Source of the DNA: Myxococcota bacterium | GTDB lineage: Bacteria > Myxococcota_A > UBA9160 > JAFDDA01 | Direction: 5' to 3' | DNA: 64,000 nucleotides | Assembly: GCA_965228475.1 (NCBI GenBank) | Contig: OZ245817.1 | Location: 2,912,001 to 2,976,000, forward strand | Part shown: one piece after another, positions 58,801 through 64,000 of the stretch | Layout: every line of letters starts with the position of its first letter | Numbering within the stretch: the stretch's first letter is position 1 | Program-made: the position numbers

Positions 58801-61800
58801 CGTCCTCCGCGACCGACAGCAGGCCGTCGATGAACTGCATGCGCTTCGGGACGGTGTCGAGGGGCACGCACGCATCGGGGTCGCCCCGGCGCTTTCCGGC
58901 CTTCTGCCGACCGTCATCGATCGCCTCTGCTCGGAGCGGCCGCGATTGACGTTCAGCGTCGTCGAGGGGACGTACCTCTCCCTCGCGGAAGACCTTCGAG
59001 CCGGCGAGATCGACGGGGCCTTCTCCTTGGTCCCACCCGGCGCAACGCACGAAGGGCTCGCCATTCGCACGCTCGCGCCGGATCCGCTCGTGATCGTCTG
59101 CAACCCGAAACACCCGCTGCTTCGCAAGAAGCGACTTCGGCTCTCCGACCTTCGGGACACTCCGTGGGCCCTCATGAGGGAGCCGCGCTCGTTGGTCGAT
59201 GCCTTCCTGGACCTCGCGGCGGCGCGCGGCCTCCAATCGCCCCGCATCTCGGTCCGGACGGACTCTCTCGACGTCCTGAAATCACTGGTCCTTCGCGGGA
59301 GCTTCCTCACCGCGCTCCCGCGCGGCGCCGTCCGGCCCGAGCTCGGCGAGAAACGCGCCGCCCTCCTCGAGACGGTCGAACGGCTCCCCAGGCCCTCTGC
59401 CGCGTTCCTTCATCGCCAGGAGATCCTCCCGCCCGCCGTCGGACTGCTCGTCGACGAGGTCTCCGCTTCGCTCGAGACCACCTGAGGCCCCCGCCGAGCG
59501 GCCCGGTCGGTATGCCGGGGCTGCATACGCAATGACACCCCGGGACATACGCCGGGTCTCGTGAGCGCCATATCCTCGCGCTCGTCATGAGGACGGGGAG
59601 AAGGCCATGAAGACGACCCGAAGAGAGGTTCTCCAATCCACACTCTGGCTCGCCGCGGCCCTCGGCGCCGGCGCTCCGGGAGCGGTGGCGCGCGCGGCGA
59701 GCGGCCGGCCGAAGTTCAAGCGCATCGCCGTGGAAGAGTCGTTCATGACCCGGGAGGTCTTCGGCGGCTTCCTCGAGCTCCTGGCCGAGGATCCCGGATC
59801 GGAGCCGGGCTTCGCTCACTTCTTCGAGACGGCCCTCGGAAAGCCGGGGGAGCTCGTCGCGGGTCTGTCTTCGGTCGTGGGCGGCGAGAACACGGCCGAC
59901 CTCGTGAACTGGATCAGCCGAAGCGCCGCCGCGCTGGGCAGCGAGGCCTCCATCACGGCCCTCGCTCGCCAGTTCGACCTCGGCGCGGAGCGGCTGCGCA
60001 TCATGGACGAGACCGGCGTGGCCATGCAGGTCGTCTCGCTCGGGTCTCCCGGCGTCCAGGTGTTCGAAGCCGAGAAGGCGACGGCGCTCGCCCGCGCGGC
60101 GAACGACCAACTCGCGGCAGCGGTCCGCGCGAATCCCGATCGCCTGGCCGGTCTCGCGGCGATCGCGCCCCAGGCCCCGGCCGAGGCGGCCAAGGAGCTC
60201 GAGCGCGCGGTCACCGAGCTCGGCCTCTCGGGCGTGATGATCAACTCCCACACGAAGGGCGAGTACCTGGATGAGGAGAAGTTCCGGCCGATCCTCGCGA
60301 AGTGCGAGGCGCTCGGCGTCCCCCTCTACCTTCACCCCCGCACACCGTCCCCCGGAATGCTCGAGCCCTTCACCCGGTACCCAGGGCTCGCTGCGGCGAC
60401 CTTCGGGTTCAGCGTCGAGACGGCCCTCCATGCGCTGCGGCTCATCCTCGGCGGCGTCTTCGACGATTTCCCGGGCCTGACCGTCATCCTCGGCCACATG
60501 GGCGAGGGCCTGCCGTTCTGGATCGACCGGGTCGACAACCGCACCGCCTTCATCCAGACGGGCCCGGGCCCGAAGCCCCGGAAGCTCCGCAAGAAACCGA
60601 GCGACTACCTGCGCGAGAACTTCTACGTCGCGACGAGCGGGATGGACTTCGAACCCGCGCTCCTGCTGGCACACCGGGTCGTCGGCCCCGACCGGATCCT
60701 GTTCGCCATCGACTACCCGATGGAGGACGGCGCGCACCCCGTCCGCGTGATCGACGAGGCGCCGATCAGCGACGACGACAAGACCCAGATCTACCAGACC
60801 AACGCCGAGCGGGTCTTCGGGCTCTCGTCGGCCTGACGCCTAGCGCCGTTCCGAAGCTGGCGCTGGGACTCGGCACGCAGCGGCCCTCAAACGCGGGCCG
60901 GTTGGCTCCACGCTCGCTCCGATCATAAGCATCTGATTCAATTGATAAAATTGGTGGAGGCGGCGGGAATCGAACCTGACGTCCCGGAGAAATTCATTAG
61001 CAAAAGCAGGCACTTGGATTCAGGCGACCTGGCTCCAAGCTGGCTCCGACGACCTCTGTTCGAAGGCTCCGAGCACAGCGTCAGCGACTAGCCGTCGCCT
61101 GCGCGGACGGAAACGACGCGCCTTCCGAGCAGGTTGAGTTTGAAGCGACGGATGGTCTCCGGCTCGATGCGATGCCCGGTCTCGTCCTCGAAGGAGAGCG
61201 CATCCACGGGGCATTGCACGACGCAGGCACCGCAGCGGATGCAGCGCTCGTCGTGAGCGAGTTCGACCTTGCGTTCGGTCTCCCGCTTCTCGAAACAGGC
61301 CTCCGGACAGACCGCCCAGCACGAGTACACGCCCTTGCATCGCTCGAGGTCGAGTGCAATGCGCCAGTCGGCACCGTCGTGGCCCGCGGGCGCGCGGGTC
61401 GGTGAGGAGCCGTCGAAGTCGAAGGTGATCACGGCCGCCAGGCATGCCGCGGCCAGCGGAGCGGTGGCCAGCCCCAACCCCTCGGCGCCCAGGACCCACG
61501 CCACAAGGAACGCACCCAGCGTTCCCCCGCCCACGATGATCCAGCGCCTGGGCTCGGGCAGTCGGTCGTAGAAGCCGAAGGCACTGAGCGCCAGCGCCCA
61601 GACGAACACGACGGCCGCCAGCCCCCAGCCCGCCTGCACCAGCCAACCGATCGCGCCCGCGACGACGGACACCGGTGCAGCCCACGCAGCGGCCATCTCC
61701 AGGCGCTCGCCGAGCGAGAACCGGGCCCGTCGCATGGAATCGGTCTTCTTCTCGCCAGCGTCCAGGTAGGCAGGCAGATCCTCGGCATAGACAGGCCCGA

Positions 61801-64000
61801 AGCGCGCCTTCCAACCGCAGCGACGCGAAAGGTCGACGGCTCGCACACCCGTTGCCGCGAGCTGGGGAAGGATGACGCGGCGGTGCGTGACCCGGCCCTC
61901 GACTCCGCTGGTCTTGAGCGCCGTCACGACTTGGGGCGTAGAGAGCAGACCTCCCGCTGCAGCGCACCAGACGTTGATGCCTCCGCTCGGAGCCACGACG
62001 AGCCAGGCATCGACACCCCGCAACGCTCGCGTCACCCGGCGAACGGTCAGGTCGTAGTTCCCGGTGACGAGCACGGGACTCCCGGCCCCCGGAGAGCCGA
62101 TGGCGCGAAGCCCCGGCTCGGTCGGCCAGGGGAGCATCCGGAAAGCGGTCTGCAGCCCTTCTCGTATCAGCTCGGTGAGCGGCATCATGGGCCCGACTCG
62201 GTGCGCCGTCCGACGAGAACGCCCAGGCTTCCCCACAACCAACGGCGGTCGCTCTCGTCGATCAGCCCGCTGCTGCGGATCTCCGCGGCGAGGTCGTCCA
62301 GTGGCCGGCTCAGCGAACCTGCGAGGAGCCAGGCCACCAGCGCCTGCGGCCCTCGGAGCAGACGCAAGACGGTCCGGGGGAGGAGCGAGCTAGGGCGCAG
62401 CTCGTCGGCCACCACGAGAGCGCCTCCAGGCCGAAGGCGGTCCGCAGCCTGCTTCACGACGAAGGCGCGCTCGGCGCGGCCCATCTCCGAGAGCACGAAG
62501 CTCGCTGCGACCGCATCGAACCCCCGCACTGGAAGCGAATCGATCTCGGCGGCTGCGCGCTCGAGGAGGACCACCTGCCATCCCGGACCCTTGCGCAGGC
62601 GCTGTTCGCATTGTTCGAGCATCGCGGCGTTCGAGTCGAGGGCGGTGACTCGGGCTCCCCGAACCAGAAGGCGCTCCGTGAGAGCGCCTGTCCCGCATCC
62701 AATTTCCAGGACCTCGGCACCAGGTCGGGGCGCCGCCACTGCGGCCACCGCATCGAGGACGGCGTGCACTCGGCCGAGCGTCATGAGGTGCATCCCCGCG
62801 TCGTAGCGCTCGGGCGTCGACTCGAGCCATCGCATGAGGGCGAGAGAGCTCACGCTTCCAAGGCTCGCTCGGCGAGGCGTTCCATTTGACGACGAAGGGC
62901 CTCGCGATCGGGAAACGCGTCGGGCTCCAAGAAGAACTGAAAGAGCAGGCCGTCGACGGCTCCGATGAGCGAAGCCGCTGCGAGGTCGGGGTCGAAGTCA
63001 CCCGATAGCTCGCCTTCGCTCTGACCGGTTCGAAGTACGCCGGACAACTCGGCGCGAACCTCTCGAAAGAAGCGGCGAAAGCGCGCCGTGTCGCTGAGGC
63101 GGAAGTCGTAGAGCATCCGCCCGAGGGCGGCCCACTCGTCGAAGAGGGTCAGAAGGGAGTCGAGCAGGTGGCGCACCCGCTCCTTCGCAGAGCCCTCGGC
63201 GCGCAGGCACGCGCGGAAGACCGCGCGTTCGTTCTCGAGCGCACCGCGAACGAGATCGCGCAGCAGCGTGTCCTTGTCCGGGTAGTAGTGGTAGAGGGTC
63301 GAGCGCCCGATCCCGGCGGCCTTCGCCACGTGGGCGAGCCCCGTGCCGCGGACGCCGCGTCTGGAGAACGTGCGCCGCGCGGCCCTTCGGATCTCGTCTC
63401 GCTGGCTCTCGGGATCGACGATCTTGGGCACTCGTCTTTTATAGACATGATTGTCGATAAAGACAACGATGTCGATAAAAGCTCAACGCAATCTGGCGCC
63501 GAGGGCCGGATCCACACGAGGCCGCCCGAGCCGCAAGCCCTTGGATTCGCTCAGGTCTTCCGAACCGGACGCGGGAGCGCAGCCGCAACTAGCGGCACAA
63601 CCAACTGATTTCGTTCGAGAAATTGGTGGAGGCGGCGGGAATCGAACCCGCGTCCGCATGGGATCCACCGACAGCGTCTACGTGCGTAGTTCCCGATCGA
63701 TCTCGGCGGCGCCAGGCTCGGGGACGGGCGAAGCGCAACCCAGGCAGACTTGTGTCTCGCTCCCGGATGCGGCCTGCCAGCGGCCGGGAGCCAGCTTCCT
63801 GATGACGGCCGCGACCCGCTAGGAAGCGTCACGGACGGCCGTCGCTAGTTCCTAGGTGTTAGCTAGGCAGCGAGTGCGTAATTATCGTCGGCAATTATCA
63901 TTACCAACATGCCAGCTAGTTAACGAGGTGGCTGACGACCTCGGCACGCAGCTCCCAGCTTCCACCACCCGTCGAAGCCAGTCGCCCCCTTGAACCCCAA

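Follow-up and report, generated by a model that had tools for sequence, protein, structure and literature searches.

A tetR-cpaM-hgcAB-like cassette at the ssrA gene of a Myxococcota bacterium and the near-obligate pairing of CpaM with fused HgcAB-like proteins

A three-gene cassette adjacent to ssrA

We identified a cassette of three minus-strand genes in a window of 64,000 nucleotides from a Myxococcota bacterium (contig positions 2912001-2976000; coordinates below count along the window). The genes encode a TetR regulator, the class-I SAM methyltransferase CpaM, and a fused HgcAB-like protein. Copies of the 3' end of ssrA bracket the cassette.

63624..63989, minus strand: ssrA (tmRNA, tag peptide ADDNYALAA), directly upstream of the cassette (ARAGORN)
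63620..63648, minus strand: repeat copy 1, attL-like, the final 25 nt of ssrA plus 4 nt (25-mer search, alignment)
63436..63481, minus strand: two tandem palindromes (ATCGACAnnnnTGTCT), a candidate TetR operator that overlaps a promoter-like site (63475-63447)
62850..63431, minus strand: tetR, 193 aa (PF00440 at 52 bits and TetR_C_6 in Pfam, sequence read)
62185..62853, minus strand: cpaM, class-I SAM methyltransferase, 222 aa (NF043040)
61088..62188, minus strand: hgcAB-like fusion gene, 366 aa, with corrinoid domain, four hydrophobic helices and ferredoxin domain (NF043039)
60948..60976, minus strand: repeat copy 2, attR-like end of the 2.67-kb cassette, an exact 29-nt duplicate of the ssrA 3' end (25-mer search, alignment)
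58592..60836, plus strand: second small segment, between repeat copies 2 and 3 (Pfam)
59607-60836, plus strand: Amidohydrolase_2 gene of the second segment (Pfam)
58592-59485, plus strand: LysR regulator gene of the second segment (Pfam)
58455..58485, minus strand: repeat copy 3, a degenerate ssrA 3' end (blastn against the ssrA of a relative, three-way alignment)

The gene order and the 4-nt overlap of the cpaM stop with the hgcAB-like start (ATGA, 62188-62185) were part of the survey's finding and stood when coordinates and sequence were re-read. The tetR stop and cpaM start also overlap, in GTGA, which the survey had not recorded. Its family assignments were reproduced: the HgcAB-like protein scores 388.2 bits against NF043039 (cut-off 285), and CpaM lies above the NF043040 cut-off of 180, at 233.2 bits rather than the 229 given earlier. 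The same is true of the Pfam assignments (CdhD and Fer4 domains in the HgcAB-like protein, a class-I methyltransferase for CpaM, TetR_N for the regulator) and of the description of the genome as oxidase-bearing, as it holds three COX1 genes. No other CdhD-family gene was found in this genome, which together with the oxidases fits independence from the acetyl-CoA pathway. Cobalamin use is represented by one cobalamin riboswitch and five proteins with a B12-binding domain.

The candidate operator is an inverted repeat with 20-nt arms that are 85% complementary, and it includes an 18-nt direct repeat present twice. Upstream of tetR, GACAnnnnTGTC is found in 24 of 33 related loci, with the consensus TTTCGACAnnnnTGTCGAAA.

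The exact 25-mer shared by repeat copies 1 and 2 occurs twice in the window, where 0 occurrences are expected, and alignment extends the identity to 29 nt. The 6 kb downstream and the 10 kb upstream of the island hold no integrase, and public contigs showed no form with an empty site. The cassette probably reached the genome through insertion at the ssrA 3' end and is now an integrase-less island. Integrase-less islands with att repeats at tRNA or tmRNA genes are cis-mobilisable elements. The present cassette resembles them in lying between direct repeats derived from the end of ssrA, and in being followed in tandem by a second segment that has a third, degenerate repeat. However, this island is just 2.67 kb long with three genes.

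Domains and motifs of the two proteins

The HgcAB-like protein consists of an N-terminal corrinoid domain, a membrane region and a C-terminal ferredoxin domain.

61754..62131, minus strand: corrinoid-binding domain, aa 20-145, matching the cobalamin domain of the CFeSP large subunit (2h9a, 4c1n, 4djd)
61966-61964, minus strand: codon of Cys75 in the cap helix G70-I-N-V-W-C75-A-A-A-G-G
61421..61702, minus strand: membrane region, aa 163-256, four hydrophobic segments with peaks near 166, 188, 217 and 238 (Kyte-Doolittle scan)
61175..61357, minus strand: ferredoxin (HgcB-like) domain, aa 278-338 (Fer4 Pfam families)

Residues 72-80 carry the cap-helix motif NVWCAAAGG reported earlier, and all 70 HgcAB-like sequences in the alignment share G70, N72, W74 and C75. 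Of the two 4Fe-4S motifs that had been described, the second (C316, C319, C322, C326) is a canonical CxxCxxCxxxCP. The first (C284, C290, C294, C298) departs from that description, since it reads C-x2-V-x2-C-x3-CP-x2-C and is without the canonical second Cys. Column counts reveal no Cys past the last cluster Cys in 69 of the 70 sequences; Cys-rich tails ending in CC occur in 10 of 12 true HgcB controls. The protein is 45% identical over 163 aa to the true HgcA of a Desulfobacterota-type genome, and falls under the cut-offs of both the true HgcA profile NF040863 (166.4 bits, cut-off 275) and the HgcB profile NF040864 (49.5 bits, cut-off 99).

CpaM carries the motif I sequence LEIGCGTG, and R16, Y17, G52, G54, G56, G144, D150, E151 and G196 are invariant across an alignment of 70 sequences. 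The solved folds nearest to its structure model (pLDDT 93, pTM 0.90) are Coq5 (TM 0.79, a likeness at fold level only, with 16% identity), CmoA and PmtA, all of them small-molecule methyltransferases. NCBIfam matches under threshold are to MenG/UbiE. We know of no class-I enzyme that methylates a protein-bound corrinoid.

CpaM and HgcAB-like genes are paired across phyla

The pairing of CpaM with HgcAB-like proteins is near-obligate across phyla in both search directions. Starting from HgcAB-like genes, we analyzed the best 80 of at least 547 relatives, the more distant members being left out. These loci represent at least 11 phyla named in the record titles, two of them archaeal. A CpaM-like ORF lies upstream on the same strand in 73 of the 80; 72 of these 73 ORFs score above the NCBIfam cut-off, 71 are directly adjacent to the HgcAB-like gene and 51 share the 4-nt overlap. 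Only two of the 80 are real misses (L048, in which the gene is 5'-truncated, and L056).

Searches that began with CpaM gave the same picture. In its own phylum CpaM is above cut-off in 33 of 301 genomes, and this wider re-count bears out the adjacency described earlier, with an HgcAB-like gene directly downstream in 29 of 30 fetched loci and the remaining one ending at a contig edge. In the archaeal Thermococci-type phylum the same six of 133 genomes carry both families, side by side, and in the Chloroflexota-type phylum two of 301 genomes encode CpaM, each together with an HgcA-like partner. True hgcA is the exception, with CpaM within 1.5 kb in none of 12 loci. Sequence distances of the two families correlate (r = 0.90, reached by 0 of 999 permutations), a correlation to which kinship alone could contribute.

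Within flanks of 6 kb, no further gene is conserved among the 80 loci (best 80 of at least 547), consistent with a self-contained module. The regulator varies by lineage, being TetR in some and IclR in others; a TetR of the type described here is upstream in 42 of the same best 80 loci, nearly all of them Myxococcota-like.

The two families are also found fused. CpaM, HgcA-like and ferredoxin domains form one polypeptide in 22 protein clusters (618-639 aa), and a further 27 clusters (423-585 aa) combine CpaM and HgcA-like domains without ferredoxin, the domain order being that of the genes. Five fusions were tested: the two triple fusions are above both NCBIfam cut-offs and the three double fusions are all above that of CpaM. 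One double fusion also passes the HgcAB-like cut-off (288), and the other two (265 and 279) are just short of it because the ferredoxin part of the profile is missing. With these repeated fusions and the counts across phyla in both directions, the survey's view that fused HgcAB-like proteins are locked to CpaM is well founded, true hgcAB excepted.

The earlier complex prediction was repeated with 70-row alignments and again gave the mark 'weak support', with an ipSAE of 0.50 (runs 0.46-0.54) against 0.00 for the best of three controls, a partner pLDDT of at least 80 and at least 69% contact agreement between runs. Among the calibration cases, 116 of 157 solved complexes and two of 215 mismatched pairs attained this mark. 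The model weakly suggests that CpaM and the HgcAB-like protein bind each other.

The name CpaM (corrinoid protein-associated methyltransferase) shows that the pairing is already recorded at NCBIfam. We found no paper on the pair, including under 'corrinoid protein-associated', and the word 'methyltransferase' is absent from the main text of Podar 2015, which described the fused clade. New here are the cross-phylum counts, the fusions, the conserved candidate TetR operator, the lack of a conserved third gene and the ssrA island.

Relationship to known corrinoid systems

HgcA and HgcB of the Pseudodesulfovibrio mercurii type share with the fused protein a homologous corrinoid domain with a Cys-bearing cap helix, a membrane region after it and a two-cluster ferredoxin as electron partner. 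However, A and B are a single polypeptide here, with four predicted helices instead of five, WCAAAG in place of WCAAGK, a first Fe-S motif without its second Cys, and no HgcB cysteine tail. A dedicated class-I SAM methyltransferase is present here and at none of the 12 true hgcA loci. Both window proteins pass the curated cut-offs of the NCBIfam families to which they belong (NF043039, HgcAB-like fusion protein; NF043040, CpaM).

The MetH reactivation module is similar to the relay proposed below in that SAM methylates a protein-bound Co(I) corrinoid with the aid of a low-potential electron carrier, and in that the corrinoid protein has its SAM-binding part coupled or fused to it. The SAM-binding fold differs, being class-I Rossmann here; homocysteine and folate barrels are absent, and a Cys-ligated corrinoid domain of the CFeSP/HgcA type sits in a membrane-anchored protein. 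In the acetyl-CoA pathway, CFeSP has a matching cobalamin domain in its large subunit (2h9a, 4djd), an Fe-S cluster for reduction, and a separate methyltransferase, MeTr, that loads the cobalt. However, MeTr is a TIM-barrel methyltetrahydrofolate enzyme rather than a SAM enzyme, and CFeSP is soluble, has two subunits and is without the Cys ligand. The cobalamin-dependent radical-SAM methylases (TsrM, Fom3, class B), like the proposed relay, move a methyl group from SAM through cobalamin to substrates beyond direct methylation by SAM enzymes. Their SAM site is a radical-SAM barrel with a three-Cys cluster, and their Rossmann B12 domain has a different ligation, whereas SAM binding here is on a separate class-I protein.

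Possible function of the pair

We propose, with a probability of roughly 0.55, that tetR-cpaM-hgcAB-like is a self-regulated operon for a two-protein, corrinoid-dependent methyl relay. Most likely, the SAM methyl passes via CpaM to the Co(I) of a Cys-ligated corrinoid, with the ferredoxin domain re-reducing the cobalt. We infer every chemical step, as well as the physical binding of the pair. The C-terminal ferredoxin domain would bring the cobalt of the corrinoid in the N-terminal HgcA-like domain to Co(I), and CpaM would then offer the methyl of its bound SAM to form methyl-Co(III), whose lower ligand would be Cys75 of the cap helix. From there the methyl would be handed, as a carbanion or radical equivalent, to an electrophilic acceptor on the membrane face, after which the ferredoxin domain would re-reduce the cobalt. 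The corrinoid would in this way invert the polarity of the SAM methyl, a step beyond the reach of a class-I methyltransferase by itself. Hg(II) is an improbable acceptor, given that the protein lacks the HgcB cysteine tail.

The survey had presented SAM as a new methyl donor. It is already published for true HgcAB, which when purified is reported to take methyl from SAM without an accessory methyltransferase, methylation at its Co(I) being more than 50-fold faster than that of free cob(I)alamin (Zheng et al. 2024, PMC11588087). CpaM may therefore be dispensable for loading. Also against the relay stand the weak-band complex score and the kinship in fold of CpaM to small-molecule methyltransferases.

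Methionine synthase carries a fused reactivation domain that binds SAM and acts together with flavodoxin. By this precedent CpaM could be a repair device only, rescuing the Co(II) cofactor with SAM and a low-potential electron, while the normal donor would be another compound whose proteins are encoded elsewhere. An electron-transfer part is always in the module, namely the ferredoxin domain or, in L224, where the fusion has no ferredoxin, a flavodoxin-like ORF that follows it. Since repair also needs the ferredoxin domain, and the MetH SAM domain is itself fused, fusion and coupling are equally compatible with both readings and cannot separate them. We nevertheless regard repair alone as unlikely: no pterin-binding or MtaB/MtbA-type donor protein is conserved near the pair in the 80 loci (best 80 of at least 547), this genome is without another CdhD-family gene, the fold of CpaM is class-I Rossmann and not that of methionine synthase activation, and SAM is reported as the catalytic donor of true HgcAB (PMC11588087).

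It is more doubtful still that the two are consecutive enzymes on one lipophilic substrate, CpaM methylating a small molecule (e.g. quinone-like) and the corrinoid/iron-sulfur membrane protein carrying out a separate reduction such as dehalogenation or demethylation. Enzymes that are neighbours in a pathway get fused too, and the best structural neighbours of CpaM are Coq5/UbiE-type and lipid methyltransferases, and it has sub-threshold MenG/UbiE matches. TetR and IclR regulators, the types found with the pair in different lineages, usually sense organic ligands. In addition, expressed HgcAB is reported to dechlorinate CCl4 (2026 preprint, 10.64898/2026.04.26.720869). However, the pairing is near-obligate both ways with no third pathway gene, the predicted complex beats its controls, though weakly, the Cys cap helix, the mark of methyl-Co chemistry in HgcA, is invariant, and the Coq5 likeness is confined to the fold.

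That the protein is a mercury methylase with Hg(II) as acceptor, as in HgcAB, is the least probable reading: despite the identity of its corrinoid domain to true HgcA, its conserved N-V-W-C and its passing the N(V/I)WCA(A/G) survey filter (PMC10839748), the protein is under both NCBIfam cut-offs, its motif ends in AG instead of GK, it has no counterpart of HgcB C73, C94 and C95, reported as crucial (PMC11588087), its cassette regulators are not metal-sensor types, and the cultured fused-gene carriers P. furiosus and M. methylutens are reported to give no methylmercury above controls (PMC4646819, PMC5893877).

For the HgcAB-like family, a dedicated SAM methyltransferase partner makes its job testable.

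The tetR-cpaM-hgcAB-like cassette

We identified a fused HgcA-HgcB relative (HgcAB-like) on the minus strand as the last gene of a three-gene cassette, in which it directly follows the class-I S-adenosylmethionine (SAM) methyltransferase gene cpaM. The survey's finding that the two are paired is borne out by the family scores, the ATGA overlap and counts in other genomes, and the pairing extends beyond the organism's own phylum. The contig offset of 2944000 used in that finding does not fit, as the window is contig 2912001-2976000.

Features of the cassette and its surroundings (window coordinates; residues for protein domains)
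63989-63624, minus strand: tmRNA gene ssrA, directly upstream of the cassette
63436-63481: two tandem palindromes upstream of tetR, overlapping a promoter-like site; candidate TetR operator
63431-62850, minus strand: tetR, 193 aa; stop overlaps the cpaM start (GTGA)
62853-62185, minus strand: cpaM, 222 aa; stop overlaps the hgcAB-like start (ATGA)
62188-61088, minus strand: hgcAB-like fusion gene, 366 aa
HgcAB-like aa 20-145: corrinoid domain, matching the cobalamin domain of the CFeSP large subunit
HgcAB-like about aa 166-256: four hydrophobic segments between the corrinoid and ferredoxin domains
HgcAB-like aa 278-338: ferredoxin domain
60976-60948, minus strand: repeat copy 2, an exact copy of the last 25 nt of ssrA plus 4 nt, just behind hgcAB-like
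about 58485-58455, minus strand: repeat copy 3, degenerate, beyond a LysR and an amidohydrolase gene

The HgcAB-like protein matches NF043039 with 388.2 bits over profile positions 4-350 of 350 (cut-off 285), and it carries the corrinoid domain, membrane helices and ferredoxin domain in a single polypeptide. CpaM matches NF043040 with 233.2 bits over positions 1-215 of 216 (cut-off 180) and, as expected of its family, is encoded beside a corrinoid protein, with which its gene overlaps. The Pfam families agree: CdhD at aa 2-132 and Fer4 at aa 277-342 in the HgcAB-like protein, a class-I methyltransferase in CpaM, and TetR_N in the regulator. The fusion protein fails both as a true HgcA (NF040863, 166.4 bits over profile positions 30-174 only, below the cut-off of 275) and as an HgcB (NF040864, 49.5 bits, cut-off 99). 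The large subunit of the acetyl-CoA-pathway corrinoid protein (CFeSP) was also considered and rejected; NF003195 gives 75.9 bits in the C-terminal domain only (cut-off 306), with no full-length match, and the gene is the sole member of the CdhD family in the genome.

The regulator has an N-terminal helix-turn-helix (PF00440, 52.4 bits), and the palindromic site lies in its own promoter region, an arrangement found in TetR repressors with their own operator. Of 33 related loci, 24 have the sequence GACAnnnnTGTC (consensus TTTCGACAnnnnTGTCGAAA) upstream of tetR, and several others have near-variants of it.

CpaM and HgcAB-like genes are paired across phyla

A scan with the HgcAB-like protein, using one genome per species, gave at least 547 relatives. 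We analyzed the best 80 of these; going by their record titles, they come from at least 11 phyla, including two archaeal ones. A CpaM-like ORF lies upstream on the same strand at 73 of these best 80 loci, and 72 of the 73 ORFs score over the NCBIfam cut-off, the remaining one being a split gene. The two genes are directly adjacent at 71 of the 73 loci, with a 4-nt overlap at 51, while 0.65-1.7 kb of extra DNA separates them at the other two. Seven loci have no CpaM match. Three of these (L020, L050 and L075) have no upstream sequence, one (L026) has a CpaM fragment cut at the contig end, and one (L071) has CpaM split into two ORFs. The real misses are thus two, L048, where the HgcAB-like gene is itself 5'-truncated, and L056, a 2.2-kb contig.

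Starting from CpaM, the association looks the same. Within the organism's own phylum CpaM exceeds the cut-off in 33 of 301 genomes, at 34 places, and an HgcAB-like gene lies directly downstream at 29 of the 30 loci fetched; the other stops at a contig edge. The same six of 133 genomes in the phylum of a Methanofastidiosia genome carry both families side by side, one of the six being the genome from which the search started. A Chloroflexota-type sample gives no usable count, since only 2 of 301 genomes carry CpaM, one of them again the starting genome; both have an HgcA-like partner. A Desulfobacterota-type phylum served as a control: 44 of its 151 genomes have true HgcA, and CpaM does not occur within 1.5 kb of true hgcA at any of the 12 loci fetched there. 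A metagenome scan with a CpaM alignment is of no use as a reverse test because the generic SAM motif drew mostly unrelated methyltransferases, but it yielded one locus described below (L091).

The only recurrent genes in the 6-kb flanks of the 80 loci are those for HgcAB-like, CpaM and, in a Myxococcota-like group, TetR; no other conserved gene occurs in more than 7 of the 80. Some Chloroflexota-type loci have an IclR regulator in place of TetR. One Methanofastidiosia genome has another class-I methyltransferase gene, different from cpaM, inserted between the two genes of the pair (L169, 2576-3202). Pairwise distances in the two families are correlated with r = 0.90, a value reached in none of 999 permutations and to which kinship alone contributes; such a correlation is expected of a co-inherited unit.

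At the level of annotation the pairing is already known through the NCBIfam name of CpaM. The phrase 'corrinoid protein-associated' does not occur in the literature searched, and the word 'methyltransferase' is absent from the main text of Podar 2015. Supplementary figures of fused-gene neighbourhoods, for instance Podar's fig. S6, could have depicted the adjoining gene before.

Fusions of CpaM with HgcA-like domains

In some organisms the two proteins form a single chain. The metagenome contig L091 encodes a 637-aa protein consisting of CpaM, an HgcA-like domain, membrane helices and a ferredoxin domain. A protein search with this sequence identified 22 clusters of such triple fusions (618-639 aa, full coverage) with methyltransferase, CdhD and Fer4 Pfam domains, some of them on contigs of up to 1.5 Mb, and 27 clusters of double fusions (423-585 aa) with methyltransferase and CdhD domains and no Fer4. 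Among those scored, two triple fusions exceed both NCBIfam cut-offs, and three double fusions exceed the CpaM cut-off and match the HgcAB-like profile at positions 2-286. The domain order is the gene order of the separate cpaM and hgcAB-like genes. The clade is thus marked more consistently by its link to CpaM than by a fused HgcB.

AlphaFold modelled the 637-aa protein poorly (mean pLDDT 54.6, pTM 0.44), so nothing can be drawn from the model on domain packing. The triple fusions share a strongly hydrophobic insertion at residues about 186-210 (L091, alignment A7), in the C-terminal part of the CpaM domain, which is possibly a membrane hairpin. At a Chloroflexota-type locus, L224, the ORF at 523-2157 is a ferredoxin-less CpaM/HgcA-like fusion followed by a flavodoxin-like ORF that starts LVLYFSGTGNT, and the electron partner of the module may be exchangeable.

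Differences from mercury methylases

The corrinoid domain shares 45% identity with a true HgcA across 163 aa, and the cap-helix residues G70, N72, W74 and C75 are invariant in all 70 sequences of the family alignment. The helix reads NVWCAA, with the cysteine, and goes on with AG rather than the GK of the HgcA form N(V/I)WCA(A/G)GK; 10 of 12 true HgcA controls have GINVWCAAGK.

Further differences are found in the ferredoxin domain. The first Fe-S motif (aa 284-298, window 61295-61339) has the family form C-x5-C-x3-CP, usually followed by x2-C (alignment A5). Its canonical second cysteine is missing in 67 of the 70 sequences and present in only three, so that the two CxxCxxCxxxCP motifs of HgcB are not both complete, and a cysteine three residues past the CP occurs in 60 of the 70. 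The motif could therefore hold a 3Fe-4S cluster or one with unusual ligation. Beyond the last cluster cysteine (C326), 69 of the 70 sequences have no further cysteine, whereas 10 of 12 true HgcB controls have a cysteine-rich tail ending in CC. According to the introduction of PMC11588087, C73 of HgcB and this C-terminal pair are crucial for mercury methylation. Cultures of P. furiosus and M. methylutens, which have fused genes, produced no methylmercury above controls, with the authors' caveat that the negative cultures are no proof of enzyme inactivity (PMC4646819, PMC5893877).

Predicted complex and possible methyl transfer

A structure of CpaM was predicted with good scores (pLDDT 93, pTM 0.90). 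A sequence search of solved structures returned generic class-I methyltransferases only, and the nearest solved folds to the model are Coq5, CmoA and a lipid N-methyltransferase. CpaM was also considered as an arsenite methyltransferase and rejected, as its sole near-invariant cysteine is that of motif I.

We predicted a complex of HgcAB-like residues 1-165, SAM and CpaM from 70-row alignments. The ipSAE is 0.50 (runs 0.46-0.54), the best of three controls is 0.00, partner pLDDT is at least 80, and the runs agree in at least 69% of contacts. This amounts to weak support on a calibration in which 116 of the 157 solved complexes reach the mark, as do 2 of the 215 mismatched pairs, and passes up to 0.60 count as weak. 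The idea that CpaM would methylate the corrinoid cobalt from SAM has this weak prediction and the natural fusions behind it.

Zheng et al. 2024 (PMC11588087) report that SAM methylates the Co(I) of purified true HgcAB at a rate more than 50-fold that of free cob(I)alamin, that the methyl-Co(III) form carries a cysteine thiolate ligand, and that the electrons come from HgcB. By homology the fused clade would go through this cycle too, CpaM being the part that binds SAM and presents the methyl group, and the Cys-ligated corrinoid would pass the methyl to an electrophile or radical acceptor.

Class-I enzymes methylate nucleophiles directly. The sensible reason for a corrinoid route would be an electrophilic or radical acceptor. 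The boldest reading is that the CpaM-linked HgcA-like clade, with or without a fused ferredoxin, may be a widespread, horizontally mobile 'methyl polarity-reversing' enzyme, in which a class-I methyltransferase loads a Cys-ligated corrinoid and the methyl then goes, as a radical or anion, to an electrophilic, probably lipophilic acceptor in aerobes and anaerobes, and that this arrangement would represent the ancestral SAM use of the mercury methylase family. This reading is tentative, and we give it a probability of roughly 0.3. The survey had read the pair as a self-contained relay from SAM through the corrinoid to an acceptor; that interpretation is plausible and can now be tested, and it is only partly new.

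A live alternative is that CpaM itself methylates a small lipophilic molecule, as its fold neighbours Coq5, CmoA and the lipid N-methyltransferase would allow. CpaM could also serve in repair only, as SAM does in the reactivation of methionine synthase. A repair-only CpaM would be compatible with the fusions and the translational coupling; we disfavour it because no other donor-binding protein is conserved near the pair.

Genome background and insertion at the tmRNA gene

The genome is a single 5.0-Mb contig, 96% complete. It has three COX1 genes, one cobalamin riboswitch and five B12-binding-domain proteins over the cut-off; neither CobS nor any CdhD-family gene besides hgcAB-like was found in it. 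From this gene content the host appears to respire oxygen, to depend on imported corrinoids and to lack the acetyl-CoA pathway.

The 3' end of ssrA recurs in the window as a 29-nt exact repeat, with 2 matches where 0 are expected, and the inserted DNA is bounded by this direct repeat in the manner of a tmRNA-integrated island. The positions of the three repeat copies give the order ssrA, cassette, repeat, second small segment, repeat. The second segment (58455-60948, between copies 2 and 3) carries a LysR gene (58592-59485, plus strand) and an Amidohydrolase_2 gene (59607-60836, plus strand). This layout suggests two tandem insertions without an integrase, and none was identified in the island, 6 kb downstream or 10 kb upstream. 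Beyond the segment, a DUF2817 gene occupies 55093-56193 (minus strand), and a second TetR gene at 56475-57050 has an alpha/beta hydrolase gene immediately after it (57064-58233). Just past the window end, about 1 kb upstream of ssrA, is an AAA_21 (AbiEii-like) ATPase gene (L276, 1483-2658).

In public contigs from two runs the stretch 59000-63652 is the same as here, and none of them joins across the cassette as an empty site would. This genome shares no synteny with six relatives in the region downstream of ssrA, and no tmRNA gene occurs in the flanks of 49 related cassettes. A tblastn search with the HgcAB-like protein against 72,556 plasmids gave no match, and the gene is absent from the same-genus and same-family genomes (completeness 89% and 81%). 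In four relatives (G150, G149, G151 and G143) the 3' end of ssrA is repeated several more times within 8-100 kb downstream of the gene, and ssrA seems to be an insertion hot spot in this order. In our reading the cassette entered long ago by site-specific insertion and either never had an integrase of its own or has lost it.

Implications for the fused HgcAB clade

In the literature searched, the papers using 'HgcAB-like' or 'fused-hgcAB' deal with surveys or phylogeny. Lin et al. (10.1101/2022.11.21.517362) treat fused HgcAB as a separate clade and name one aerobic carrier, and the methods of PMC10839748 keep HgcA matches by the motif N(V/I)WCA(A/G). Filters that use this motif alone let the fused CpaM-linked clade through, and counts of 'mercury methylators' in oxic habitats can therefore be inflated. 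Adjacency to CpaM together with the missing HgcB cysteine tail is a simple means of separating the clade from true hgcAB in metagenome surveys.

The ssrA-flanked cassette indicates that the unit moves between genomes as a regulator and two enzymes. The pairing with CpaM independently agrees with the 2024 finding that the methyl group of the family comes from SAM. Because its partner is an almost always present SAM methyltransferase, sometimes in the same polypeptide, the fused HgcAB clade, without known function since 2015, gains a two-protein system to express and assay. If the proposed mechanism is correct, a class-I methyltransferase acting on protein-bound cobalt would be new enzymology.
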